44,903 nt of DNA from Candidatus Daviesbacteria bacterium (GCA_030648645.1 JAUSHL010000023.1:1-44903), one strand, 5' to 3'. Numbered from the stretch's first letter, positions 191 to 29,403 are shown. The notes: generated by a model not told the origin, from the letters alone. Made by a program: numbers and translations.

Positions 191-772
191 ATGAAAAACC
201 TGCCCACTTCGACTACGCTCAGTGTAAACACTCAAAAATCCTCAAAAGGTTTTACTTTAATAAGTCTACTTTTGTTTCGCAAAAGATCTTGTAAGGGTTT
301 CACCCTTATTGAACTTTTAGTGGCAATTTCTATTGTGGCAATACTAAGCACAATTGGTATGGTTGTTTATGGTGGGGTGCAGGCCAGAAGCAGAGATGCT
401 AAAAGAAGTGGAGATTTAACAGCAATTGCTGATGCTTTGGAAGGTAATAAACAGGCAGGAAGTATTTTTTATACCGCTTTAGCCGGTGCTAATTTTGCCG
501 GAGGGTCTATACCGTCTGATCCCCGTTCTCCTTTAACTCAAAAATATTGTATGTGGGGTGAAACTGATGTTCCTCCGGTTCCCGGTATTGCAAAACCTAC
601 TTCAGCTAATGTTAACTGGACAACTTGTGCAATTACGGGCTCATCACCTGAGTATACTGCTGTAATTGGTGATGGGGTACCGGTAACTGCAACAAAAGTC
701 ACTTCATTTACAATTTGTGCAAAACTTGAAGCAGTAACTGGAGGAGTTGAGTGCAGATCATCCAGATTATAA
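191..772 (+). CDS. Type IV pilin / GspG-like prepilin
   Basis: GFTLIELLVAISIVAIL N-methylation motif, RDAKR helix, Cys-containing C-terminus; leader carries an extra GFTLI. Confidence 0.9.
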   Translation: MKNLPTSTTLSVNTQKSSKGFTLISLLLFRKRSCKGFTLIELLVAISIVAILSTIGMVVYGGVQARSRDAKRSGDLTAIADALEGNKQAGSIFYTALAGANFAGGSIPSDPRSPLTQKYCMWGETDVPPVPGIAKPTSANVNWTTCAITGSSPEYTAVIGDGVPVTATKVTSFTICAKLEAVTGGVECRSSRL

Positions 773-776
773 AAAT

Positions 777-1223
777 ATGAGAAAAAGTAAAGGTTTTACC
801 CGAACAAATTTTAGAAATATTAAGAAAAATTTGCGCGGGTTTACCCTTATAGAATTATTAGTCGCAATCAGTATAGTTGCAGTGTTGGCAACTATTGGTT
901 TTACTCTTTTCCAAGGTGCTCAGGCTACAGCCAGAGATGGTAAAAGAAGAGCTGATGTTCAGTCTATGGCGACTGCCTTAGAGACTCATTTTGATGCTGT
1001 GACAGGGATTTATGCTCCATTAGTTGCTACATGGTTTTCTGATAAAATTGTTCCGGTTGATCCTCTAAATGCCAGTGGATATGTTTATTCAATAGTTATT
1101 CCTGAAGGAAGTGCTACTTATGTAGCCTGTGCTAAATTGGAAAAAGGTGGAGGGAACTTTACTGATGCCGGTACTACCCCAGGCTCCGGAGATTATTATT
1201 GCAAACTCAACCAACAACAATAA
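777..1223 (+). CDS. Type IV pilin / GspG-like prepilin
   Basis: GFTLIELLVAISIVAVL, ARDGKRRAD, PVDP, CAKLE; ATG at 777 chosen (MRKSKG). Confidence 0.9.
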   Translation: MRKSKGFTRTNFRNIKKNLRGFTLIELLVAISIVAVLATIGFTLFQGAQATARDGKRRADVQSMATALETHFDAVTGIYAPLVATWFSDKIVPVDPLNASGYVYSIVIPEGSATYVACAKLEKGGGNFTDAGTTPGSGDYYCKLNQQQ

Positions 1224-1225
1224 AA

Positions 1226-1738
1226 ATGAAAAGATTATCCGCAGGTTTTACACTCGTTGAACTTATGGTTGTGATCTCCATCATCGCCATTTTAGCAAGT
1301 GTTTCTATAGTTCTTTTTACTTCTTCTCAAGCTAGTGCGAGGGATGCTAAAAGAAGAATTGAACTTTCTGCATTGGCAAAATCAATTGAAGCTTCAAGAG
1401 ATATGGGAAATGGTAGTTATTACTATGAAAGTACAAGAATGAATGCAGATTTCCCTACTATTGGATTGTATAATGATCCCAAAGGTCATGCTTATTGTAT
1501 ATACACATCTACTTCTGTAGGTGCACCAGGAGCTATGACCTCAGCCCAAAATAATAATTCAGTGAGTTGTAATGTTAATAATGGTAATTATATAGATTTG
1601 ACTACTTCAGTGAATCCTAGTCCACCTACAACTGCTAACAGATTAGGCAATAATATTTTTGATGTAAAAGGATGGACTTTGTGTGCATTAATGGAAAGAG
1701 GAACTGCTCCTTTTTGTATATCTAGTATTGCTAGGTAA
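1226..1738 (+). CDS. Type IV pilin / GspG-like prepilin
   Basis: GFTLVELMVVISIIAIL, ARDAKRR; start at ATG 1226. Confidence 0.9.
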   Translation: MKRLSAGFTLVELMVVISIIAILASVSIVLFTSSQASARDAKRRIELSALAKSIEASRDMGNGSYYYESTRMNADFPTIGLYNDPKGHAYCIYTSTSVGAPGAMTSAQNNNSVSCNVNNGNYIDLTTSVNPSPPTTANRLGNNIFDVKGWTLCALMERGTAPFCISSIAR

Positions 1739-1761
1739 TTTTGTTTGATTCCTTACATTTT

Positions 1762-2253
1762 ATGAAAAGTCTCGAACAATTTACTCAAGGTTTCACCATT
1801 ATTGAATTATTAATATCAATATCAATAATTGCAATATTGGCCACAATTGCTTCTGTTCTTTATATTAGTACTCAAGCAACCGCTCGGGATTCCCGCCGAA
1901 TTACTGAAATAATTAATATTTCTCAAGCGATTGAGTTTAACCGTGATGTAAATTCTAAATTTTATACTTATAATACAACTTCTGCTAATAGAGATTTTGT
2001 TGGTGGATTACCTCAAGATCCTTTAGATAATAGAAAATATTGTGTTAGTCTTAACAGTAGTAACTCTACACCTCCCAATGCATGTGATATTAATTGGCAA
2101 ACTAATTGTTTAAACTCATGCAATGGGGCAAATTACATAACTTTGGATGATGCCTTAACTATTCTTGCTACGAATTCAATTCAGAGTTGGACTATTTGTA
2201 CCTCTATGGAAAGAGCAAATAAACCTTTTTGTAGACAGAATATTCATCGTTAA
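1762..2253 (+). CDS. Type IV pilin / GspG-like prepilin (paralogue of preceding gene)
   Basis: GFTIIELLISISIIAIL; C-terminal WTICTSMER..PFC resembles WTLCALMER..PFC of the previous gene. Confidence 0.9.
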   Translation: MKSLEQFTQGFTIIELLISISIIAILATIASVLYISTQATARDSRRITEIINISQAIEFNRDVNSKFYTYNTTSANRDFVGGLPQDPLDNRKYCVSLNSSNSTPPNACDINWQTNCLNSCNGANYITLDDALTILATNSIQSWTICTSMERANKPFCRQNIHR

Positions 2254-2277
2254 TTAGATATATGATAGACTGGATAT

Positions 2278-2805
2278 ATGAAGAATAATAAGCATAACAT
2301 GCGTGGGTTTACCCGAACAAATTTTAATAATTTTAAACAAAATTTGAACGGGTTTACCTTAGTTGAACTTTTAGTGGTTATTGCCATTATTGCTATATTA
2401 GTTTCAATTTCTATTGGTGTTTTTGCCGGTTTACAAAAAAGTGGCAGGGATGCTAAAAGAAAATCTGATTTGGCTACCATTCAATCAGCCCTTGAACAAT
2501 ATCATGCTGATCAAAATGTATATCCTGCAAATGTCGTTACAGCGGGTACTTCTCTAACAAACCGAATGGGAATTAATCCTACTCCTGTAACTACCAAAAC
2601 ATATTTGGCAACAATGCCCAAAGAAGTTAACCCCACTCCTTATGTATATGAAAAAAATCCTACATCTTGTGATAATACAATGAGTGATTCTTCTAAATAT
2701 TGTACTAAGTATTGCCTCTATGCCACATTAGAAAATCCGGGACCTACTCCTGTTGCCCCATGTAATACTGCAGGTTCAGGAAATTATTCAGTCTCAGCAC
2801 CATGA
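2278..2805 (+). CDS. Type IV pilin / GspG-like prepilin
   Basis: GFTLVELLVVIAIIAIL, RDAKRKSDL..IQSALEQY..D...YP. Confidence 0.9.
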   Translation: MKNNKHNMRGFTRTNFNNFKQNLNGFTLVELLVVIAIIAILVSISIGVFAGLQKSGRDAKRKSDLATIQSALEQYHADQNVYPANVVTAGTSLTNRMGINPTPVTTKTYLATMPKEVNPTPYVYEKNPTSCDNTMSDSSKYCTKYCLYATLENPGPTPVAPCNTAGSGNYSVSAP

Positions 2806-3227
2806 ATAAAAGAGGCTTTACTTTGATTGAGATATTAGTTGTAATTTCTATTATTGCTATTTTAGGGGCAGTGAGTTTTGGTATTTTTAGTACTCTGCAA
2901 AAAAATAACCGTGATCAGATAAGAATCAGAGATTTACAGGGTATTAAACAGGCTTTGGAACTTTATAGGAGTGATAATGGCAATTACCCTGATGATGTTC
3001 TGCCTACTGGCTCTCCTGATTATATTCCAGATGATATTATAACTGAATACCTAAATGTTTGGCCCTCAGATCCTGTAAGTGGTCAATTTTATGCCTATGC
3101 TAAAACTGCCACAGGATTTGTTGTTTGTGCTAAAAAAGAAGGGAATATTACTATTTCTCCCCCACCAGAGTGTACCATGAACTGTAAAACAGGAGTACAG
3201 TGTGATTTGGGCTTCCAGTCAGACTGA
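2802..3227 (+). CDS. Type IV pilin / GspG-like prepilin
   Basis: KRGFTLIEILVVISIIAIL, RDQIRIRDL..IKQALELY, PSDP. Confidence 0.9.
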   Translation: MNKRGFTLIEILVVISIIAILGAVSFGIFSTLQKNNRDQIRIRDLQGIKQALELYRSDNGNYPDDVLPTGSPDYIPDDIITEYLNVWPSDPVSGQFYAYAKTATGFVVCAKKEGNITISPPPECTMNCKTGVQCDLGFQSD

Positions 3228-3266
3228 TCAGTTGCAAAATAGGATCAAAATTAGTATGGTTAAGGT

Positions 3267-3899
3267 ATGTCAAAGAACTTCTCACTTCGTTCGAAGAATA
3301 AGCAAAGCTTGAACTTCTCACTTCGTTCGAAGAATAAGCAAAGCTTGCGACCTAATGGTCTTAAGGGTTTCACCCTTATAGAGCTTTTAGTAGTAATAGC
3401 GATAATTGGTACATTGGTTGCTGTTTTACTTCCCCAATTAAGTAATTTTAACCGTGAACAGGTATTAAAAAATTCAGCTTCTGATCTTAGATCCAATATC
3501 AGAAAAACTCAAAACAATGCCAGTAGTGGATTGAATTGTAATAGTGATGGACTTTCTACTTCGAAATGGACGATTAAATTTACCAAGTTTTCTTCTGATT
3601 ACATTATCACTGCCACCTGTTCTGATGGTAGCCAAATTCCCGTGTCTTACTTTTTGCCTGCAGGAATCACAATTAGTAGAATTCAATTGGATAGTTGTAT
3701 ATTAGGCAATTTTAGTCCTCGTATTCCTGGTGTTGCTAAAGTGATTTTTAGTAATATCTCTTCTGCAATAAGTTATGATGTTGATGGATCGTTGGGATGT
3801 ATGCCTATAAATAATAAAGCACTTACAACCACCTTAAAAGACGAAAATACTAATACCACGAAAGATGTGGTAATTGAGAAAGGTGGAAATGTTTACTAG
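3267..3899 (+). CDS. Minor pilin, FimT/GspH-like
   Basis: GFTLIELLVVIAII, L..SASDLRSNIRKTQ..A, C-terminal IEKGG. Confidence 0.8.
   Translation: MSKNFSLRSKNKQSLNFSLRSKNKQSLRPNGLKGFTLIELLVVIAIIGTLVAVLLPQLSNFNREQVLKNSASDLRSNIRKTQNNASSGLNCNSDGLSTSKWTIKFTKFSSDYIITATCSDGSQIPVSYFLPAGITISRIQLDSCILGNFSPRIPGVAKVIFSNISSAISYDVDGSLGCMPINNKALTTTLKDENTNTTKDVVIEKGGNVY
3275..3346. repeat. Perfect 36-bp tandem duplication in pilin leader
   Basis: GAACTTCTCACTTCGTTCGAAGAATAAGCAAAGCTT at 3275-3310 and 3311-3346. Confidence 0.95.
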
Positions 3900-4428
3900 A
3901 CAAAAAGGCCCTGCCTGCCGGCAGGCAGGACAAAGTTTAATTGAGGTTTTAATTGCTTTAACTGTTACTGTGGTTATGATTGTTGCTTTAATTGCCTTTG
4001 TTTTATCCGGTTTAAAAAATGCTCAGTTTGCTCAAAAACAATCAAAAGCTACTAAACTTGCGGTTGAAACTATGGAACAAATTAAAACTATTAGGGATAG
4101 AAATGGAGCAATATATTTTTCTTATAAAGATGTAACGGTTCCTAAAACAGCAACAATATTTCCTGAACTTTGGCAAATCAGTATGTCCGGTCAGGATTCA
4201 TGTATAAGTAGTAAATGTTATTTTAATATCCAATCAAATACTTTAATTGAAGGAAGTGGGGCTTCAGCAATAAATATAGGTGATGGGTTTACAAGACAAA
4301 TTATTTTTGAGGATAATTCTCCTCTCGTTTATTCCAAAGAAAAAAGAGTCACAGTAAATATTTTTTGGACAGATTCAAGCGGTGATCATAATTCAAATAT
4401 TCAGACAATATTAAGTCCGGCTATATGA
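3889..4428 (+). CDS. Minor pilin, PilV/GspI-like
   Basis: GQSLIEVLIAL, A..LA.E.ME.I, FTRQI, KRVTV.I.W; ATG 3889 follows AGGTGG. Confidence 0.8.
   Translation: MFTRQKGPACRQAGQSLIEVLIALTVTVVMIVALIAFVLSGLKNAQFAQKQSKATKLAVETMEQIKTIRDRNGAIYFSYKDVTVPKTATIFPELWQISMSGQDSCISSKCYFNIQSNTLIEGSGASAINIGDGFTRQIIFEDNSPLVYSKEKRVTVNIFWTDSSGDHNSNIQTILSPAI
3910..3929. repeat. Perfect 20-bp GC-rich palindrome CCTGCCTGCCGGCAGGCAGG in pilin leader
   Basis: Self-complementary; encodes PACRQAG immediately before G|QSLIE. Confidence 0.9.
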
Positions 4429-5087
4429 AAAACACAAAGGGATTCACCCTTATTGAAATCTTGGTAGTAATAGTTTTATTAGGTATTTTGGGTGTTATTT
4501 TAACTAATATTTTATCACAAGTACTTCGGGGACAAAATAAAATTAATACGGTAAATTTAGTCAAACAAAACGGTCAGGTAATTTTGGATCAACTTTCTCA
4601 TGAAATCAGATCTGCTGAAAAAGTTATTTGCATAGGTCAAGCTACTACTTATTTAAGATCTTCTATTTCGAGTTATCCCAGTGGAACGATTGTGATTTTT
4701 AGAAATGGTAATTTTATTCGTTTCAGATTGATTCCACCTTGGCCCGTTGCTAATCCAACCACTAATGGATTTATTCAAAAAGAAATTTTTACAATCGATG
4801 ATATTCCAGATGCAACAACAGATGAGATGCTTTGTACTGAATCAATGGAGTACACTAGAGGACAGCAAAGTTTTTTTACGAATAACATTAATAGCATTTC
4901 CTTAAATTATGATGGTTCTAATCCAATTTTTAGTTTTGATACACTAACACCTCAACCAGGTTTGCCTAATCTTGTTTTAATTAGATTTAGAGGTTTTCAG
5001 GATGTAAAATCTAAAACTGCTGAATCAACAGTATCTGATGAAGGTGTTTTATTTTCGACAGCAGTATCTGTGAGAGGAGGGAAATAA
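4425..5087 (+). CDS. Minor pilin, PilW/GspJ-like
   Basis: GFTLIEILVVIVLL, L..EIRSA, C-terminal FSTAVSVR. Confidence 0.8.
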   Translation: MKNTKGFTLIEILVVIVLLGILGVILTNILSQVLRGQNKINTVNLVKQNGQVILDQLSHEIRSAEKVICIGQATTYLRSSISSYPSGTIVIFRNGNFIRFRLIPPWPVANPTTNGFIQKEIFTIDDIPDATTDEMLCTESMEYTRGQQSFFTNNINSISLNYDGSNPIFSFDTLTPQPGLPNLVLIRFRGFQDVKSKTAESTVSDEGVLFSTAVSVRGGK

Positions 5088-5090
5088 ATT

Positions 5091-6050
5091 ATGAATCATG
5101 AATTAAGAATAAGCAAAGCTTGCGATCTGACGATCTTTAAGAATCAAGCGGGACAGGTGGTTATTATTTTGCTTTTGGTAATGGTGGTGTCTTTGGCAAT
5201 TGGTTTATCAGTAGTGGGAAGAAGTATGACAGAAATTTCTACTGCCACTAATTCTGAAAATTCTTCCCGGGCTTTTTCAGCAGCTGAAGCAGGAATAGAA
5301 AATATTTTATACGACAGTTCTTTACCGGGCTTTGTTAATTATGCAGGTAATCGAAGTATTGATAATACAAAATTAACTAATGATTCTGCAGCTCAAATTA
5401 ATTGGGATACAAAAATGCCACCCACAGGAACACCAAATGGTGTGGCTTTAGAGTATCCGCCTTTTGGGAAAGAATCATTTGCCCAATTTTGGCTGGCTAA
5501 TCCTTGTAGTAATCCTCCTACATGTAGTAATCCTCCTGCAAGGTTTTATACTAAAACCAATTTTGATCTATATTTTGGAGATCCAACTTATCAATATACT
5601 GGTAATACTGATCCTAATTATCCGGCAGTAGAGGTTAAAGTTATTAATTCAGATAATACCAGTATTTTAAAAGTTTTTGATGCTTCGCCAGTTAATACAA
5701 CTCGTTCAGGTTTTTCGGGTTGTGCTGGAAGAGATCAAACAATAAAAACAAACAATAGTTCCACTGCCTCAAGCAAATTTCTCTGTAAAGTAAATGTGTC
5801 CGGCTATTCGAATTCAGCTTCTTCTTATCCGGTTATGGTCAGGGTAAGAATACTTTTTACCAGTCTTCCTCATCCTGTGGCTTTACAGCCATTATCAGAT
5901 AATTTACCCTATCAGGCTAAAATTTTTAATTCAAAAGGCATGTCCGGTAATGTCCAAAGAAATATGAAAGTTTTTCAGGAGATATTTGTGATGCCTCATA
6001 TTTTTGATTATGCTATCTTTTCTTTGGGTGAATTAAATAAATCACCATGA
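5091..6050 (+). CDS. PilX/GspK-like minor pilin
   Basis: GQVVIILLLVM without E+5, RAFSAAEAGIE PilX N-terminal motif, FDYAIFS. Confidence 0.8.
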   Translation: MNHELRISKACDLTIFKNQAGQVVIILLLVMVVSLAIGLSVVGRSMTEISTATNSENSSRAFSAAEAGIENILYDSSLPGFVNYAGNRSIDNTKLTNDSAAQINWDTKMPPTGTPNGVALEYPPFGKESFAQFWLANPCSNPPTCSNPPARFYTKTNFDLYFGDPTYQYTGNTDPNYPAVEVKVINSDNTSILKVFDASPVNTTRSGFSGCAGRDQTIKTNNSSTASSKFLCKVNVSGYSNSASSYPVMVRVRILFTSLPHPVALQPLSDNLPYQAKIFNSKGMSGNVQRNMKVFQEIFVMPHIFDYAIFSLGELNKSP

Positions 6051-6451
6051 GTATAAAAGAAAAAGGAATATCTTTAATAGAAATTATTTTAGTTGCAGCG
6101 GTAGTAATGGTTTTGACTTTACTTTTAGGAACAGTACCTTCTGCTATGTCTTCAATCAATAAAAGCCGTCATAACTCTATTGCCAGAGAAATAGCTGCTA
6201 AACAAATTGAATATCTTAAAAGACAGCCGTATATTAACCTTGCAGAAGGAGTAAATTCTTTTGCTGATATCAATTTAGATAAACTTTCAGGAAGCAGTTC
6301 TTCTTATGAAATAAAAGCTTGTTCTGCCAGTGTTTGTACCAATGGGGAAGATGTTAAAGAAGTAAAAGTGTCTGTTTTCTGGAATGAAGTTAAAGAACCA
6401 TCAAAAGTAGAGTTTACTACTTTAATTTATGCCGGAGGGATTGGTCAATGA
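6047..6451 (+). CDS. Minor pilin, PilV/GspI-like (second set)
   Basis: GISLIEIIL, A..IA..QIE.L, KEVKVSVFW, TTLI. Confidence 0.8.
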   Translation: MSIKEKGISLIEIILVAAVVMVLTLLLGTVPSAMSSINKSRHNSIAREIAAKQIEYLKRQPYINLAEGVNSFADINLDKLSGSSSSYEIKACSASVCTNGEDVKEVKVSVFWNEVKEPSKVEFTTLIYAGGIGQ

Positions 6452-7041
6452 AAATTTTTCGTCATGGTTTTACCCGAACAAATTTTGCAAAGCAAAATTT
6501 GAACGGGTTTACTTTAGTTGAGATATTGATTGCCATAGCAGTTGCCTCCATTGTTGGGTTGTTTTTGATGAGTATTTTGATTAATAATAATGGGGTATTT
6601 TATAAACAAAGCTCTTTGGTAAATACAGGTTTGAGTTCCAATGATGTAATGAGTGAAATTGATAAAAATATTCGTCAGGCCACTAATGTTGTAGATACTT
6701 CCGATTCCAACACAATGATTTTAAAATTACCTGCTTTAGGAGAAAATGGAATGATAGATAATGTTTATGATTTTGTAATTATTGCTAAAGATGCCAATAA
6801 AAATAACATCTTAAGAAAGAAAGTTTTGCCTGATTCTTTAAGTATTAGAAAATCTGAAGATTTAGTGATGACAACTATTTTAAATTCAATAAATTTTATT
6901 TATCTTGATAAATCTGGATCTATTGTTAATCCTCAATCTGCTACTTCAGTCAAAACATTGCTTGTAGTCAAGTCTAGTTTTGGTGCAACAACTTCCAGTG
7001 GATCATCATCAGCAATTACTACTTTAAAAAATGCTTTATGA
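6448..7041 (+). CDS. Minor pilin, PilW/GspJ-like (second set)
   Basis: GFTLVEILIAIAV, I.KNIRQA, C-terminal TLKN. Confidence 0.8.
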   Translation: MKIFRHGFTRTNFAKQNLNGFTLVEILIAIAVASIVGLFLMSILINNNGVFYKQSSLVNTGLSSNDVMSEIDKNIRQATNVVDTSDSNTMILKLPALGENGMIDNVYDFVIIAKDANKNNILRKKVLPDSLSIRKSEDLVMTTILNSINFIYLDKSGSIVNPQSATSVKTLLVVKSSFGATTSSGSSSAITTLKNAL

Positions 7042-8837: not shown

Positions 8838-9872
8838 ATGGCTGCAGAATATGTAACTGGTTTAGATATTGGTTCTTTTTCCATTAAAGCCGTGGTATTG
8901 TCTCACAAGGGAAAAGTGCCTAAATTATTTTCTTTTGGTTCAATTGTCGCTCCCCAACCGGGAATATTTTCTGATGCAGAGCCGGATTTGGAAATAGCAG
9001 CTAAGGCAATTAAAAATTTATTAATCTCAATAAAAGTACCCAGTGGATCGTCAATTGTAATTGCTTTACCGGAATCAAAAATTTTTACCAGAGTAATTAC
9101 TGATTTACCGTTTTTAACTGATGAAGAATTGGTTTCAGCGATCCATTATAGTGCAGAAGAATTTGTTCCCTTGCCAGTTGATCAGGTAAATTTATATTGG
9201 CAGGTAATTTCGAGGTCTAAACAACATAACAATACTCAAGTGTTTGTGGTAGCTTCTCCAAAAAACACTGTGAACAAATATTTAAAAACTTTAGCATATG
9301 TTGATCTTCACCCTTCAGCTTTAGAAACAGAGTTAATCGCTGATGCCAGAGCATTGGTTGGAAACAATCCTTTTACTCCAACTACTTTAATTATACAGCT
9401 TGGAGCTACTTCTTCTGATTATGCAGTTGTTTCAAAAGGGGTGATTTTACTTACCAGATCAATTGCAACAGGAGGAATGGCTTTGACCCGATCAATTTGC
9501 CAGTATTTAAATTTTGAGCCAACTCAGGCCGAAGAATATAAGAAAGCCTATGGATTATTGGAAGATCAACTTGGGGGAAAAATTTATCAGGCTTTAAAGC
9601 CTTTAGTAGATATTATTATTTCTGAAGCCTCCCGTGTCATTCAATCATTTCAAACTCAGAACCCACAAAATCATATCAAAAGAGTGGTTTTAACCGGTGG
9701 CGGTGCTAAATTACCGGGAGTTGTTGGTTATTTTGCCAATACCTTGGGACTGGAAGTTCAGGAAGCTGATCCTTGGCAATTTATTGAAAAGGATAGCAAT
9801 GTTTCCCCGAAGCTATTGGAAAATGGTATGCATTACACAGTAGCTGTTGGTTTAGCTTTAAGACAAGAATGA
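8838..9872 (+). CDS. pilM: Type IV pilus assembly protein PilM
   Basis: GLDIGSFSIK actin-like ATPase motif, LTGGGAKL, AVGLALR. Confidence 0.95.
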   Translation: MAAEYVTGLDIGSFSIKAVVLSHKGKVPKLFSFGSIVAPQPGIFSDAEPDLEIAAKAIKNLLISIKVPSGSSIVIALPESKIFTRVITDLPFLTDEELVSAIHYSAEEFVPLPVDQVNLYWQVISRSKQHNNTQVFVVASPKNTVNKYLKTLAYVDLHPSALETELIADARALVGNNPFTPTTLIIQLGATSSDYAVVSKGVILLTRSIATGGMALTRSICQYLNFEPTQAEEYKKAYGLLEDQLGGKIYQALKPLVDIIISEASRVIQSFQTQNPQNHIKRVVLTGGGAKLPGVVGYFANTLGLEVQEADPWQFIEKDSNVSPKLLENGMHYTVAVGLALRQE

Positions 9873-15739: not shown

Positions 15740-17881
15740 TTAGTCCGGCATTATTCTTTGCTCCAGATTAGACAATTTTGCACGAAGTACAGGGTATTTG
15801 TCAAGTTCTAAACTTTCCGACAGAATTTTAGATACTGCTGTTTTGGTTTTTTCTATTAAATTTAAATCAGAAAAAGAAGCTATTTTTAATTCCCATCTAC
15901 CACTTTGCAGTGTGCTAAAAATTTCTCCTCCACCCCTAATTTTTAAATCCAGTTCAGCCAGTTTTAAGCCACTGTATATTTTTTCCAGATGTTTGATTCG
16001 GGAAACGATACTTGATTGTTCAGATTCGGTAAATAGGAAAGCATAAGATTGCTTGTCCGATCTGCCGACTCTGCCCCGAAGTTGGTGTAGCTGAGATAAT
16101 CCAAATCTTTCTGCTCCTTCAATTACCATAACAGCGGCATTAGGAATATCCATGCCTACTTCAACCACAGATGTAGAAACTAAAATATCAATTTCATGAT
16201 TTTTAAATTGTAAGATAACTGCATCTTTTTCTTTTGGTTTTAATCTGCCGTGTAAAAGACCAAGTCTTAATTTGGGAAAAATATCTTTTTTTAATCTTTC
16301 AAATTCAACTTTGACCGCCTTTGCAGAAGTCATAGTTTCCGATAGTTCAATTAAAGGAGTGATGATATAAATTTGTTGTCCATCTTTGACAATTTTTTCC
16401 ATAAATTTATAAGCATCAGCTCTCTTTTTTTGGGGTACAAAATGTGTTCGAACAACTTTTCTACCCACCGGCATTTCATCGATTACTGATAAATCTAAAT
16501 CTCCGTATAAAGTTAAGGCCACAGTTCGGGGAATGGGAGTGGCGGTCATGGTTAAAAAATGTGGACTTCTTGCTTTGGCTCGAAGTAAAGATCTTTGACT
16601 TACTCCAAATCTTTGTTGTTCATCAATAATAATTAATCCGACATTTTCCGGTTGTAATTTTTTTGACAAGAGGGCATGAGTTCCCACAATAACATCAGGT
16701 TGAGAGTTGTCATTGCGAGGGACGCACCGGACGGTGCATCCCGTGGCAATCTGTTTTTGAGTAGATTGCTTCCCCGGCTTATGCCGGATCGCAATGACAT
16801 AGTTTTGTTTTGTAAATTTCTTAGAGCCGGTATAAATCCCTACTTCTATCCCATATGGTTCTAAAAATTTTTTTAGGGTTTCAAAGTGTTGGAAAGCAAG
16901 AATTTCTGTAGGAGCCATAATAATTGTTTTTAAATTATTTTGATGAGTGATAAAAGCAGAAATGGCAGCAATAATTGTTTTGCCGGATCCTACATCTCCC
17001 TGTAATAATCTATTCATTGGAGTAGTTTTTTGCAGATCAATTTTTATTTCTTCAACAACTTTTTCCTGAGCCTTGGTTAATTTAAAAGGTAATGAATTTA
17101 TAAATTCAGTTAATTTTTGTTCATCAATTGATAATTTTTCTGTCTTTTCTTTTTTTTGCCACTCCCCTCTTGTTTTTTGAGAAGATAGCTGAATATAAAA
17201 TAATTCATCGAAAGCTAATCTGTCACGGGCTTTTTTGGCTTTATCTAAATCATCCGGAAAATGAATTTGTTTTAAAGCATCTTTCAGTGGTAATAAATCC
17301 TGTGAGATAAAATCCGGCATTGGATCTTCAATTTTTTCTAAAATATTTGGCAGAATTTTAGAAATCTTATATCTTAACCATTTGGAGGATAAACCATAAG
17401 TTTCCGGATAAATTGGTATCAATCCTCCGGTATGGATTCCCAACCCCCGAGGTTTTAGTACTCCAACTCCAACCTCGGGGGTTGACCTTTCCCAAACCGG
17501 TGAGACTAAAGTAGTTTTATTCCCCTTTCTATTAATTTTACCTGAAACCTGTAACCTGTCCCCTGCTTTAATATTTTTAGTAAGCCAAGGCTGGTTAAAC
17601 CAGATTATTTCTAAAGTTCCGGATCCGTCATTAAAAATTGCCTGAGTTAAAACTTTACCGTATCTGGTATAGATGTTTTTGATTGACCAAATTTCCCCTT
17701 TTAAGGTGACTGTCTCCCCTATTTGTGTTTGGGAAATATCCTGATTTTTAGAAAAATCATCATATCGGAAAGGATAATGATTAATTAAATCTTCAACAGT
17801 TTTTAAATTTAAATTTTTCAATCTGGAGGAAAATGCCGGTCCAATTCCAGCAAGAGAAACCAAAGGTGTTTTTAAATCCAT
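15740..17881 (-). CDS. recG: ATP-dependent DNA helicase RecG (two in-frame palindromic insertions)
   Basis: RLLQGDVGSGKT, MAPTEILA.QH, IIDEQQRFGV, MTATPIPRT, QLHQLRGRVGR. Confidence 0.97.
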   Translation of the reverse strand: MDLKTPLVSLAGIGPAFSSRLKNLNLKTVEDLINHYPFRYDDFSKNQDISQTQIGETVTLKGEIWSIKNIYTRYGKVLTQAIFNDGSGTLEIIWFNQPWLTKNIKAGDRLQVSGKINRKGNKTTLVSPVWERSTPEVGVGVLKPRGLGIHTGGLIPIYPETYGLSSKWLRYKISKILPNILEKIEDPMPDFISQDLLPLKDALKQIHFPDDLDKAKKARDRLAFDELFYIQLSSQKTRGEWQKKEKTEKLSIDEQKLTEFINSLPFKLTKAQEKVVEEIKIDLQKTTPMNRLLQGDVGSGKTIIAAISAFITHQNNLKTIIMAPTEILAFQHFETLKKFLEPYGIEVGIYTGSKKFTKQNYVIAIRHKPGKQSTQKQIATGCTVRCVPRNDNSQPDVIVGTHALLSKKLQPENVGLIIIDEQQRFGVSQRSLLRAKARSPHFLTMTATPIPRTVALTLYGDLDLSVIDEMPVGRKVVRTHFVPQKKRADAYKFMEKIVKDGQQIYIITPLIELSETMTSAKAVKVEFERLKKDIFPKLRLGLLHGRLKPKEKDAVILQFKNHEIDILVSTSVVEVGMDIPNAAVMVIEGAERFGLSQLHQLRGRVGRSDKQSYAFLFTESEQSSIVSRIKHLEKIYSGLKLAELDLKIRGGGEIFSTLQSGRWELKIASFSDLNLIEKTKTAVSKILSESLELDKYPVLRAKLSNLEQRIMPD
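16708..16799. mobile_element. 92-bp miniature palindromic element in frame within recG
   Basis: TGTCATTGCGA...TCGCAATGACA termini, internal hairpins, GC-rich against an AT-rich gene; adds about 30 residues (VIAIRHKPGKQ...VPRND). Confidence 0.85.
17441..17484. repeat. Inverted pair of CAACCCCCGAGGTT palindromes in frame within recG
   Basis: CAACCCCCGAGGTT...AACCTCGGGGGTTG; single copy also at 43171-43193. Confidence 0.85.
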
Positions 17882-26502: not shown

Positions 26503-27162
26503 GTGAGAGATTTATCCTTTTGTACTGATTGCTATTATCATATTTACAATCGTGGTGTCGAGAAAAGAAAGATTTTTGAGGATAGATTTGACTATTGGCG
26601 ATTCCTAGAAACATTAGGTTTTTATCGTAAATCCCCCATTCCGGTAAAGCTCTCAGATTTTAGAAGAGGTAAGCTTGGAATTAGGAAAATTGAAGCTCAG
26701 ACTGAAATAGTCAAAATATATTGTTTCTGTTTAATGCCTAATCATTTTCATTTGATCGTTCAACAAGTTGCAGAAAATGGCATATCCATATTTATGAGGA
26801 AAATTTCTGATAGTTATACCAAATATTTTAATACAAAACATGAACGAGTTGGTTCTTTATTTCAGGGTCCATTTAAGGCTAAATTAATTGAGACTGATGA
26901 ATATTTGCTTCAACTTTCTAAATATATTCACAGAAATCCAAAAGAGCTTGAGTTCCCACACTCGGTGTGGGAAGCTAAGCAATATCCGTATTCCTCATAC
27001 CAATATTATCTTTCGGGGGAAAAACATTCTTTCTGTGATACAGAGTTTATTCTTTCTTATTTTTCCAAGACAAATCCAAATTCAGATTATCAAAGTTTTG
27101 TAGAGGAATTTGGATTTGAAGACCCATCTTTTTATAGCGTATTTATAGATCCAGAAGATTGA
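26503..27162 (+). mobile_element. REP-associated tyrosine transposase (RAYT, IS200/Y1 HUH superfamily)
   Basis: YYHIYNRGVEKRKIF, CLMPNHFHL (HUH), LFQGPFK, YIHRNP, YPYSSY; flanked by REP-like palindromes. Confidence 0.92.
26950..26973. repeat. REP-like palindrome copy 2, in frame inside the RAYT ORF
   Basis: Identical 24-mer, translated as EFPHSVWE. Confidence 0.9.
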
Positions 27163-29109: not shown

Positions 29110-29403
29110 TTATTTTGATAATGCATCCAAACTTTCTCTAATTATTAATTTTAGCCCCTTTTTACCTGAAGTGGTTTTTAGGTATTTTTCTCTTCTTAGA
29201 GCATCAGATTTGGATAGAAAATATTCACAAAAGATTAAATCGAATGGCCTTCTTGGTGCCGTTGCAGCAGATTCACCATTAAAATGAGAAGTTAATCTTT
29301 GTTTAAGGTTAGAAGTATAGCCAATGTAAAATTTATTATCCTTTTTACTTAGAAGCACATAAATACAAAACTGGAGTTTCATTTTTAAGTCTGAAAGAAA
29401 CAT
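29110..29403 (-). CDS. GIY-YIG nuclease (SLX1/UPF0213-like, stand-alone)
   Basis: IYVLLSKKDNKFYIGYTSNLKQRL..H, A.RRE.YLK...G. Confidence 0.9.
   Translation of the reverse strand: MFLSDLKMKLQFCIYVLLSKKDNKFYIGYTSNLKQRLTSHFNGESAATAPRRPFDLIFCEYFLSKSDALRREKYLKTTSGKKGLKLIIRESLDALSK

Follow-up and report, generated by a model that had tools for sequence, protein, structure and literature searches.

Rickettsia palindromic elements (RPEs) are portrayed in passages of two reports as palindromic non-coding repeats that lie in frame within many unrelated functional protein genes, at fold-compatible positions (PMC10969869; PMC3184786), and a passage of the second gives ~105–146 nt as the length of those described in Rickettsia (PMC3184786). 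[quoted passage not shown] Here we describe a hairpin element located in the leaders of three type IV pilin genes on a 44,903-nt contig of Candidatus Daviesbacteria bacterium (GCA_030648645.1, JAUSHL010000023.1:1-44903; this entire stretch is referred to as the window). In our view each of the three sites probably holds one copy of a mini insertion element, palindromic and non-coding, that forms a dispersed, MITE/REP-like repeat of the candidate phyla radiation (CPR)/Patescibacteria.

RPEs also insert into RNA genes, and IS200/IS605-type single-strand transposition (IS, insertion sequence) uses hairpin-defined ends and a specific 4–5-nt site beside the hairpin, with IS608 inserting 3′ of TTAC. 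Set beside these systems, the present element may be rated, by analogy, as a REP/MITE/RPE-like kind of system, with RPEs and the REP/MITE repeats as its nearest analogues. Like RPEs, it is palindromic and stands in frame in functional open reading frames (ORFs), a functional likeness drawn without sequence comparison; unlike them, it has CPR hosts, measures only 34–40 nt, carries 5-nt direct-repeat flanks in a subset of copies and, in pilins, is located in the leader that is removed. It resembles REPs in being a ~35-nt imperfect palindrome, dispersed and sometimes in tandem, within a genome rich in RAYT-like Y1 genes, but it lacks GTAG, has intragenic copies and flanks none of those 12 genes. 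Compared with the MITEs Correia, Nezha and IMU (which has a 5-bp duplication), it shares terminal inverted repeats, absence of coding capacity, a stable RNA stem-loop, direct repeats in a subset of copies and, at the protein level, both empty and filled homologous sites for all three hosts; it differs in being far smaller (two arms and a loop), in having no parent IS found that shares its ends, and in the many copies without clear duplications. In the manner of IS200/IS605, a mini-element made of a single hairpin, with one cleavage 5-mer repeated at either side, would give TTTAC-hairpin-TTTAC; this is an analogy only, and the element differs in having no cognate TnpA found (no genomic linkage) and an internal loop whose orientation is not fixed relative to the flanks. 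Literature searches returned no published description of the element, nor of a doubled prepilin site or a hairpin in a prepilin leader.

Hairpins in the leaders of three pilin genes

The window is contig C18 of a 962-kb source genome (G000; 45 contigs, 34% G+C, 95% complete), and its named homologues and relatives are Patescibacteria, many of them carrying the Daviesbacteria label. It opens with a type IV pilus cluster of 12 pilin-like ORFs within 191–7041, followed by a large ORF and by pilM at 8838. Three of the pilin genes (Table 1) contain a hairpin of the common form ACCCGAACAAATTTT-loop-AAAATTTGNNCGGGT between two Gly-Phe-Thr (GFT) triplets 45, 45 and 39 nt apart, in the layout GFT, ACCCGAACAAATTTT-loop-AAAATTTG(CG/AA/AA)CGGGT, GGG-TTT-AC(C/T), L-(I/V)-E and hydrophobic pilin helix. 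The 15-mer ACCCGAACAAATTTT is exact in all three, its inverted partner is present each time with 2 mismatches, and the sites lie within open frames, with translations MRKSKGFTRTNFRNIKKNLRGFTLIELL, MKNNKHNMRGFTRTNFNNFKQNLNGFTLVELL and MKIFRHGFTRTNFAKQNLNGFTLVEIL. At ≤3 mismatches the window holds 11 matches vs 3.96±1.95 after shuffling (0/100 shuffles get to 11). Folded as RNA, the three segments yield -15.6, -16.9 and -18.0 kcal/mol (z -3.7 to -5.1), with 0/200 shuffles as stable. The initial annotation had reported this arrangement, with conserved stems and divergent loops, in three otherwise divergent hosts (two major-type pilins and a PilW-like one), and its description is borne out throughout: pilins 1 and 2 share 48% identity over 81 aa, and pilin 3 resembles them in leader and helix only.

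Each window copy can be written TTTAC-[CCG...CGGG]-TTTAC, a 34- or 40-nt palindromic core inside a 5-nt direct repeat, the first TTTAC being the original TTT-AC of Phe-Thr. The element's end, ...CGGG, together with the downstream TTTAC makes GGG-TTT-ACN, so that an in-frame G|F-T-L-x-E site is rebuilt before the unchanged helix. The G-F-x-x-x-E motif and hydrophobic helix by which type IV prepilins are recognised occur in 3/3 hosts, and the NCBIfam prepilin domain TIGR02532 matches 3/3 above cut-off, aligned at the second GFT (in pilin 1, residues 20–41 counted from ATG 777). This second site has the G(-1), F(+1), E(+5) and helix of a class III signal peptide, from which the present leaders differ in being lengthened (20–27 residues with the insert) and in holding a decoy G-F-T, which is followed by R-T-N-F and lacks both Glu at +5 and a hydrophobic stretch. 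From the domain alignment and from what the first GFT lacks, we infer that prepilin peptidase cuts the second GFT, which would leave the mature pilins unchanged.

The unit measures 45, 45, 39, 36, 39 and 36 nt in pilins (the last three in other genera), whereas in non-coding DNA the copies stand 39, 37, 37 and 33 nt apart, in tandem or counted from repeat to repeat. Frame in the pilins is thus kept by selection rather than by the element, which would mean that translation passes through the insert from the old start codon.

Empty and filled sites were compared at the protein level. The closest orthologue of pilin 1 (P0060, 90% identity) is empty, and among the 120 homologues listed only two are filled, the window's own protein and P0064. 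The pilin 2 orthologue P0004, 86% identical over its full length, begins MRIKGFTLVELL and is empty. All eight pilin 3 orthologues found (59–91% identity) are likewise empty, among them P0051, which has the same leader (MKIFNQGFTLVEIL; MKIFNQ-GFT-LVEIL vs MKIFRH-GFT[RTNFAKQNLNGFT]LVEIL). Since close orthologues (86–91%) of all three hosts lack the insert, these protein alignments, of the kind that the initial annotation had proposed, show the three pilin copies to be derived insertions. Filled pilins are also present in other lineages, both as proteins (P0002, P0005, P0006, P0010 and P0064) and as DNA (G027, G108 and L120), so the same codon position has been struck repeatedly. Beside the sequencing run that is probably the source, a contig of a second run is identical to the window over 6433–6656 and filled.

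A relative's pilin 2 orthologue, P0003, has a called ORF that starts MRNKQNLCGFT and holds the right-arm half of the insert only; it may be a filled allele with an altered start or a decayed left arm.

The insert might instead be a protein-level feature, namely an extended prepilin leader with two peptidase sites in which the peptide GFTRTNF..NLxGFT is conserved. The insert is always in frame, free of stops and basic-rich like leaders, and it appears in the several database pilins just named. Yet the same nucleotides occur in non-coding DNA, in RNA genes and in other frames, where they encode PEQI.. or PNKF.. peptides; the nearest orthologues do without the insert; and the six pilin copies available as DNA, from five genomes, have zero variation at the four synonymous third positions of ACC-CGA-ACA-AAT. 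A selected peptide is hence the least credible explanation, to which we give almost no weight. The arm letters are identical in non-coding copies, in other reading frames and at synonymous sites, and on this comparison the insert is conserved as DNA, not as protein, in agreement with the proposal that the stem is what is preserved.

Distribution of the element and its sites outside pilins

A covariance model (R1) and alignment were built from 13 copies, coding and non-coding, from six genomes. The core of 34–40 nt comprises two 14–15-nt arms, a 3–13-nt loop and a 2x2 internal loop that is never paired; the usual loop is GCAAAGC or a variant, so that the stem has 5 + 10 bp. One and the same left arm, ACCCGAAC.., is present in 13/13 aligned copies, and pairing holds in 89.9% of alignment cells vs ≤53% with a slid pairing. 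Changes on both sides are limited to 2 pairs, a number that 339/500 shuffles reach; covariation is weak because the sequence hardly varies, and support for the structure is thus conserved complementarity and not covariation. Searched against Rfam, the hairpins matched no family, the single match (E 0.98) being located elsewhere.

With nhmmer and the covariance model, 13 copies were found in the source genome: three are in the pilin leaders, one is in a tRNA-Val-like fragment (C24), and the other nine lie between genes. Of these nine, C5 carries a tandem pair and C24 two such pairs, and C4, C7 and C9 have the rest. A family survey of 96 genomes, which included the source genome and no other of its genus, gave matches in 14 at E≤0.01 under the covariance model, with 1 to ~13 copies each. 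A wide scan with an exact pattern, one genome per species, returned at least 116 stretches, mostly Patescibacteria records among the matches listed, where Microgenomates, Parcubacteria, Saccharibacteria and other lineages are represented. Matches labelled as non-CPR (Lonepinella, Treponema, Lysinibacillus, Campylobacter and others) were rejected as family members, being fully paired palindromes or isolated matches. Judged by these searches, the element is widespread in Patescibacteria and patchily distributed.

The initial annotation had also supposed a specificity for pilin cleavage codons. The genome and CPR searches that it suggested do reveal a dispersed element that fills 3 of ~11 prepilin motifs; most of its sites are not pilins, and the supposed specificity does not hold, with copies in ribosomal RNA (rRNA), RNase P RNA, tRNA-like sequences, 5′ untranslated regions (5′-UTRs), promoters and ten proteins. 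The same findings bear on the alternative of a pilin-dedicated cis element, by which pilin genes would be tuned or shuffled, whether as a 5′ mRNA hairpin or as a recombination handle. Three copies within 5.7 kb of one cluster, at a homologous codon and in the same orientation, are in its favour, and other genera add more pilin cases. Against it, 10/13 copies in the source genome lie outside pilins, as do most copies elsewhere; the copies are direct rather than inverted, without shufflon/invertase-like geometry; orthologous clusters do without the insert, as with the 8/8 empty orthologues of pilin 3; and the sequence flanking the insert differs among the three genes, with no conversion tract evident. 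We therefore think this alternative very improbable, and nothing specific was found to favour it.

Among structured RNAs, Rfam confirms the hairpin as a domain-I helix of the 23S rRNA of G107 and G073 (12 extra nt compared with the bacterial model) and as helix P3 of the RNase P RNA of G106 (8 extra nt). This 23S helix is hypervariable in the family and differs in three genomes of the genus of G107 (G100, G108 and G117), which makes the element an acquisition there, not an ancestral feature. The wide scan adds copies in 16S helix 6 (L124, L137), in 23S rRNA (L109, L127, L195, with L045 and L059 also among the 23S loci) and in RNase P P3 (L112, L119, L141, L171, L180, L186), some of these loci being from the same genomes as the G handles, so that double counting is possible. 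Copies in RNA genes occur in both orientations. At the same domain-I helix, the 23S rRNA of the source genome (C5 from ~8.9 kb, L076) has a long, different insertion, and several family members have other long inserts there.

In-frame copies are found in ten Pfam-confirmed non-pilin proteins. The insert separates the catalytic and anticodon-binding domains of a class-I aminoacyl-tRNA synthetase and the ATPase and transducer domains of GyrB, and it lies in an interdomain linker of NadE; the other hosts are PheT, DnaG, RecJ, RecO, a radical-SAM enzyme, a RimK-like ligase and an amino-acid kinase. Copies in 5′-UTRs stand just upstream of Shine-Dalgarno sequences of unrelated genes. One Wolfebacteria GyrB (L150:631-4272) combines an Intein_splicing domain (intein) with an in-frame hairpin insert.

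The conserved arms, and the hairpin's repeated appearance in RNase P P3 and in rRNA helices, sustain the main rival explanation, in which the hairpin would be a functional module, an RNA or single-stranded-DNA recognition site of a conserved CPR protein, recruited repeatedly into stable RNAs and some mRNAs and, in pilin mRNAs, tuning stability, translation or localisation. Its arms are almost invariant across distant lineages while loops and internal-loop bases vary; it returns to the same places in RNA (RNase P P3 at six scan loci and in G106, 16S helix 6, 23S); the hairpins have the stability given above; and the pilin copies are 6/6 in one orientation. Opposed to this are the patchy occurrence in 14/96 family genomes, at 1 to ~13 copies; the close orthologues of all three pilins without an insert; the 23S helix of one genus that is filled in one genome and not in three others; the two orientations in RNA genes, which would give different RNAs (AA vs UU internal loop); the 5′-UTR copies upstream of unrelated genes; and the unrelated hairpin families in the same niches, along with the lack of an Rfam match. 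On balance we regard a recruited module as possible but rather unlikely.

Putative target site, proposed mechanism and candidate enzymes

The flanks of the hairpin were compared in 144 strand-readings against 2000 shuffled pairings, most copies being read on both strands and likewise in the null. Direct-repeat identity of ≥4/5 occurs in 30/144 readings vs 10.5 expected, the shuffle maximum being 21, and mean flank identity is 2.19 vs 1.71±0.07 under shuffled pairing. Flank 5-mers are identical at 5/5 positions in the three window copies and the two copies on C5; the 5-mers seen are TTTAC, TTGAC, TCAAC and TTCAC, and further copies stand between TTGAC..TTGAC or (G)TCAA..TCAA. Where the flanks are TTGAC, the downstream one can often be read as a -35 box. 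On C4 the element is followed by TTGACA-17-TAATAT, upstream of an antitoxin-like gene, and there it thus rebuilds a promoter box as it rebuilds the cleavage site in pilins. A terminator identity was considered for the same copy and rejected, as it has no T-run and 0 terminator-like sites. The flanks would fit duplication at a staggered cut as well as a single-strand, HUH-type mechanism that uses one cleavage 5-mer at either side. Many non-pilin copies are also preceded by GG(N)TTTAC. The source genome has ~11 prepilin motifs, 3 of them filled, vs 3,843 TTTAC sites; three pilin copies are far above a random choice of TTTAC, and strong filtering, an extended site preference, or both must be at work.

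We propose that the mini insertion element would enter at TTTAC inside GGN-TTT-ACN (Gly-Phe-Thr), and that the downstream copy would restore the processing site. Translation would run from the old start codon through the insert, prepilin peptidase would cut the second site, and the 13–15 extra residues would leave with the leader, so that the mature pilin is unchanged. The pilin leader would thus be a permissive parking place and not a dedicated target. In like manner, TTGAC-flanked copies rebuild a -35 box, and others persist at helix tips of stable RNAs, in 5′-UTRs and in linkers of essential proteins. For its spread the element would need an enzyme acting in trans, one able to recognise the conserved arms and to cleave at TTKAC-like 5-mers. 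The original idea of a mobile palindrome that regenerates its target and hides in a removed leader is largely right: insertion, dispersal and the repeated TTTAC are found in the data; removal with the leader is deduced, and the part that calls for a mobilising enzyme did not find a counterpart among the genes searched.

On this account, genome-reduced CPR bacteria with little spare DNA would nonetheless bear selfish or semi-selfish mini-repeats, which would survive where sequence is discarded, as in signal leaders, where it is rebuilt, as in promoter boxes and cleavage sites, or where it is neutral to structure, as at helix tips and in interdomain linkers. It would account for doubled G-F-T leaders, seemingly broken tRNAs and extra rRNA/RNase P RNA helices in the annotation of CPR genomes, would provide pilus biology with natural constructs that contain a decoy cleavage site, and raises the question of which agent mobilises a ~35-nt hairpin that has preserved its sequence throughout a superphylum.

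Possible movers were sought among the Y1/HUH and GIY-YIG genes of the source genome. Y1_Tnp domains are present in 83/96 family genomes, so that co-occurrence with the hairpin cannot discriminate; the 12 Y1 genes of the source genome are RAYT/IS200-like, encode 177–276 aa and are each bracketed on both sides by a GC-rich hairpin of their own.

GIY-YIG genes come into view through tRNA contexts. Many copies of the hairpin occupy the D-loop of a tRNA-like sequence (..TAGCTCAGTTGGTTTA[hairpin]TGAAGAGCG..). With the hairpin taken out in silico, ARAGORN called a tRNA in 1/19 distinct cases (L200, tRNA-Val gac), and a hairpin within a functional tRNA is accordingly supported once only. The other cases, which are 5′ fragments or 5′-truncated copies, are of two kinds: 5′ fragments with a small GIY-YIG ORF within ~40 nt downstream, with seven members (G084a, L096, L139, L178, L182, L183 and L196), and fragments that adjoin a complete tRNA (G084b, L113, L152, L187 and G000:C24). 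Both G000:C24 and G084:C41 are arranged hairpin–GIY-YIG–tRNA-Val–hairpin, and the tRNA-Val-like copy at G000:C24 is 5′-truncated, with the hairpin in its D-loop. The search for an HUH or GIY-YIG gene flanked by the hairpin, which the initial annotation had recommended, thus had a divided outcome, empty for HUH and positive for one bracketed GIY-YIG gene in the source genome, with GIY-YIG genes after tRNA fragments in seven other genomes. GIY-YIG genes adjoin tRNAs generally, so their link to the hairpin may be indirect, via tRNA genes; we see them as the best lead for a partner, not as a demonstrated one.

Small GIY-YIG genes typically adjoin tRNA genes, as in the window (29155–29370 on the minus strand, by tRNA-Tyr c29467–29542) and on C17, C24, C25 and C34. 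Several are preceded by a partial or altered tRNA copy, examples being C17 (pseudo-copy of a tRNA-Glu) and C25 (fragment of a tRNA-Asn), and by their arrangement these genes look like mobile cassettes that target tRNA genes. The tRNA-Val cluster at G000:C24:6480-6900 comprises, in this order, an intact tRNA-Val(cac), the 5′-truncated hairpin copy and a 3′ fragment with a different ~50-nt T-loop insertion.

A bolder reading makes the hairpin the whole mobile unit of an undescribed CPR hairpin-guided insertion system that rebuilds the 5-nt target TTKAC downstream. Three unrelated hairpin families in the source genome (two further ones are described below) share niches: all are found in pilin leaders, and two of them also in D-arm fragments of tRNAs next to small GIY-YIG genes. 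This could point to a general hairpin-inserting machinery, possibly small GIY-YIG nucleases or RAYT-like Y1 proteins acting in trans. We hold this to be doubtful. If it were true, downstream target rebuilding would explain how the hairpin can live in -35 boxes, prepilin cleavage codons and the helix tips of essential RNAs.

Several observations weigh against the insertion-element reading that we prefer. No mobilising enzyme was identified among the genes searched: the pilin hairpin flanks 0/12 Y1/HUH genes and lies near only 1/13 GIY-YIG matches of the source genome, and apart from two degenerate matches that genome, complete to the extent stated above, contains no solo arms of the sort expected from a longer parent element. 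The flanks of many copies, instead of being direct repeats, prolong the palindrome (TTTA..TGAA/TAAA), and selection for G-F-T would also keep the TTTAC repeat of the pilins, which leaves it a candidate target-site duplication. There is a strong excess of copies in structured RNAs and at pilin sites, and random insertion with filtering may not be the full explanation. The arms are near-identical across distant CPR lineages, and between pilins 1 and 2 the loops have diverged and the arms have not, a conservation that could reflect constraint by a host function. No filled/empty nucleotide polymorphism was seen in the assembled contigs, which drop rare variants. Finally, cleavage at the second GFT is a prediction.

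Feature coordinates and other repeats of the window

Coordinates of the pilin genes, of the element copies and of the other repeats are collected in Table 1.

Table 1. Pilin genes, hairpin copies and other repeat features of the window (positions counted from its first nucleotide).
Feature	Coordinates	Strand	Details
Doubled GFT of pilin ORF 191..772	248..304	+	GFTs 48 nt apart (KGFTLISLLLFRKRSCKGFTLIELL); outside the main hairpin family (family 1)
Host pilin 1	747..1223	+	GspG/PilA-type; start TTG 747 or ATG 777
Element copy 1	800..844	+	GGT-TTT-ACC 792-800, GGG-TTT-ACC 837-845; first TTTAC 795-799; hairpin ACCCG...CGGGT 798-840; 40-nt core CCG...CGGG 800-839; second TTTAC 840-844; adds 15 codons (RTNFRNIKKNLRGFT); covariance-model score 50.9 bits
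Host pilin 2	2278..2805	+	GspG/PilA-type
Element copy 2	2313..2357	+	GGG-TTT-ACC 2305-2313 and 2350-2358; first TTTAC 2308-2312; hairpin 2311-2353; 40-nt core 2313-2352; second TTTAC 2353-2357; adds 15 codons (RTNFNNFKQNLNGFT)
Family-2 mini-repeat	3275..3362	+	ATAAGCAAAGCTTGCGAYC..GRTCTT; leader of pseudopilin ORF 3267..3899; in part a perfect 36-nt tandem duplication
Third hairpin family	3910..3929	+	CCTGCCTGCCGGCAGGCAGG; leader of PilV-like ORF 3889..4428
Family-2 mini-repeat	5105..5137	+	N-terminal leader of ORF 5091..6050
Host pilin 3	6448..7041	+	PpdC/PilW-like minor pilin
Element copy 3	6474..6512	+	GGT-TTT-ACC 6466-6474, GGG-TTT-ACT 6505-6513; first TTTAC 6469-6473; hairpin 6472-6508; canonical 34-nt core 6474-6507; second TTTAC 6508-6512; adds 13 codons (RTNFAKQNLNGFT); best covariance-model score, 62.1 bits
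Y1 gene	~26.5-27.4 kb		Y1 domain 26701-26937; flanking hairpin CCCACACTCGGTGTGGG

Leader inserts are present in 7/12 pilin-like ORFs, and 6 of these 7 come from dispersed repeat families. The family-2 repeat is unrelated to the pilin hairpin and has 17 genome matches at ≤3 mismatches; its flanks resemble direct repeats, AAGAAT..TTAAGAAT. The third hairpin family has 4 genome copies, one in the window and the others at G000:C25:16425, C14:1692 and C38:1965. One of the copies occupies the D-arm of a tRNA-Asn 5′ fragment that has a GIY-YIG gene just downstream. Its pair of niches, a pilin leader and a tRNA fragment by a GIY-YIG gene, is that of the main element.

The sequence between the doubled GFT of ORF 191 is unique (1 genome match) and holds a small palindrome, CTTTTG..CAAAAG; similar 'GFTLxxx...GFTLIELL' doublets occur in the database pilins P0013, P0107 and P0156. 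A separate GC-rich inverted repeat, CCCCGAGGTT..AACCTCGGGG, lies at 17446–17479 of the window and resembles the hairpins around another Y1 gene on C27.

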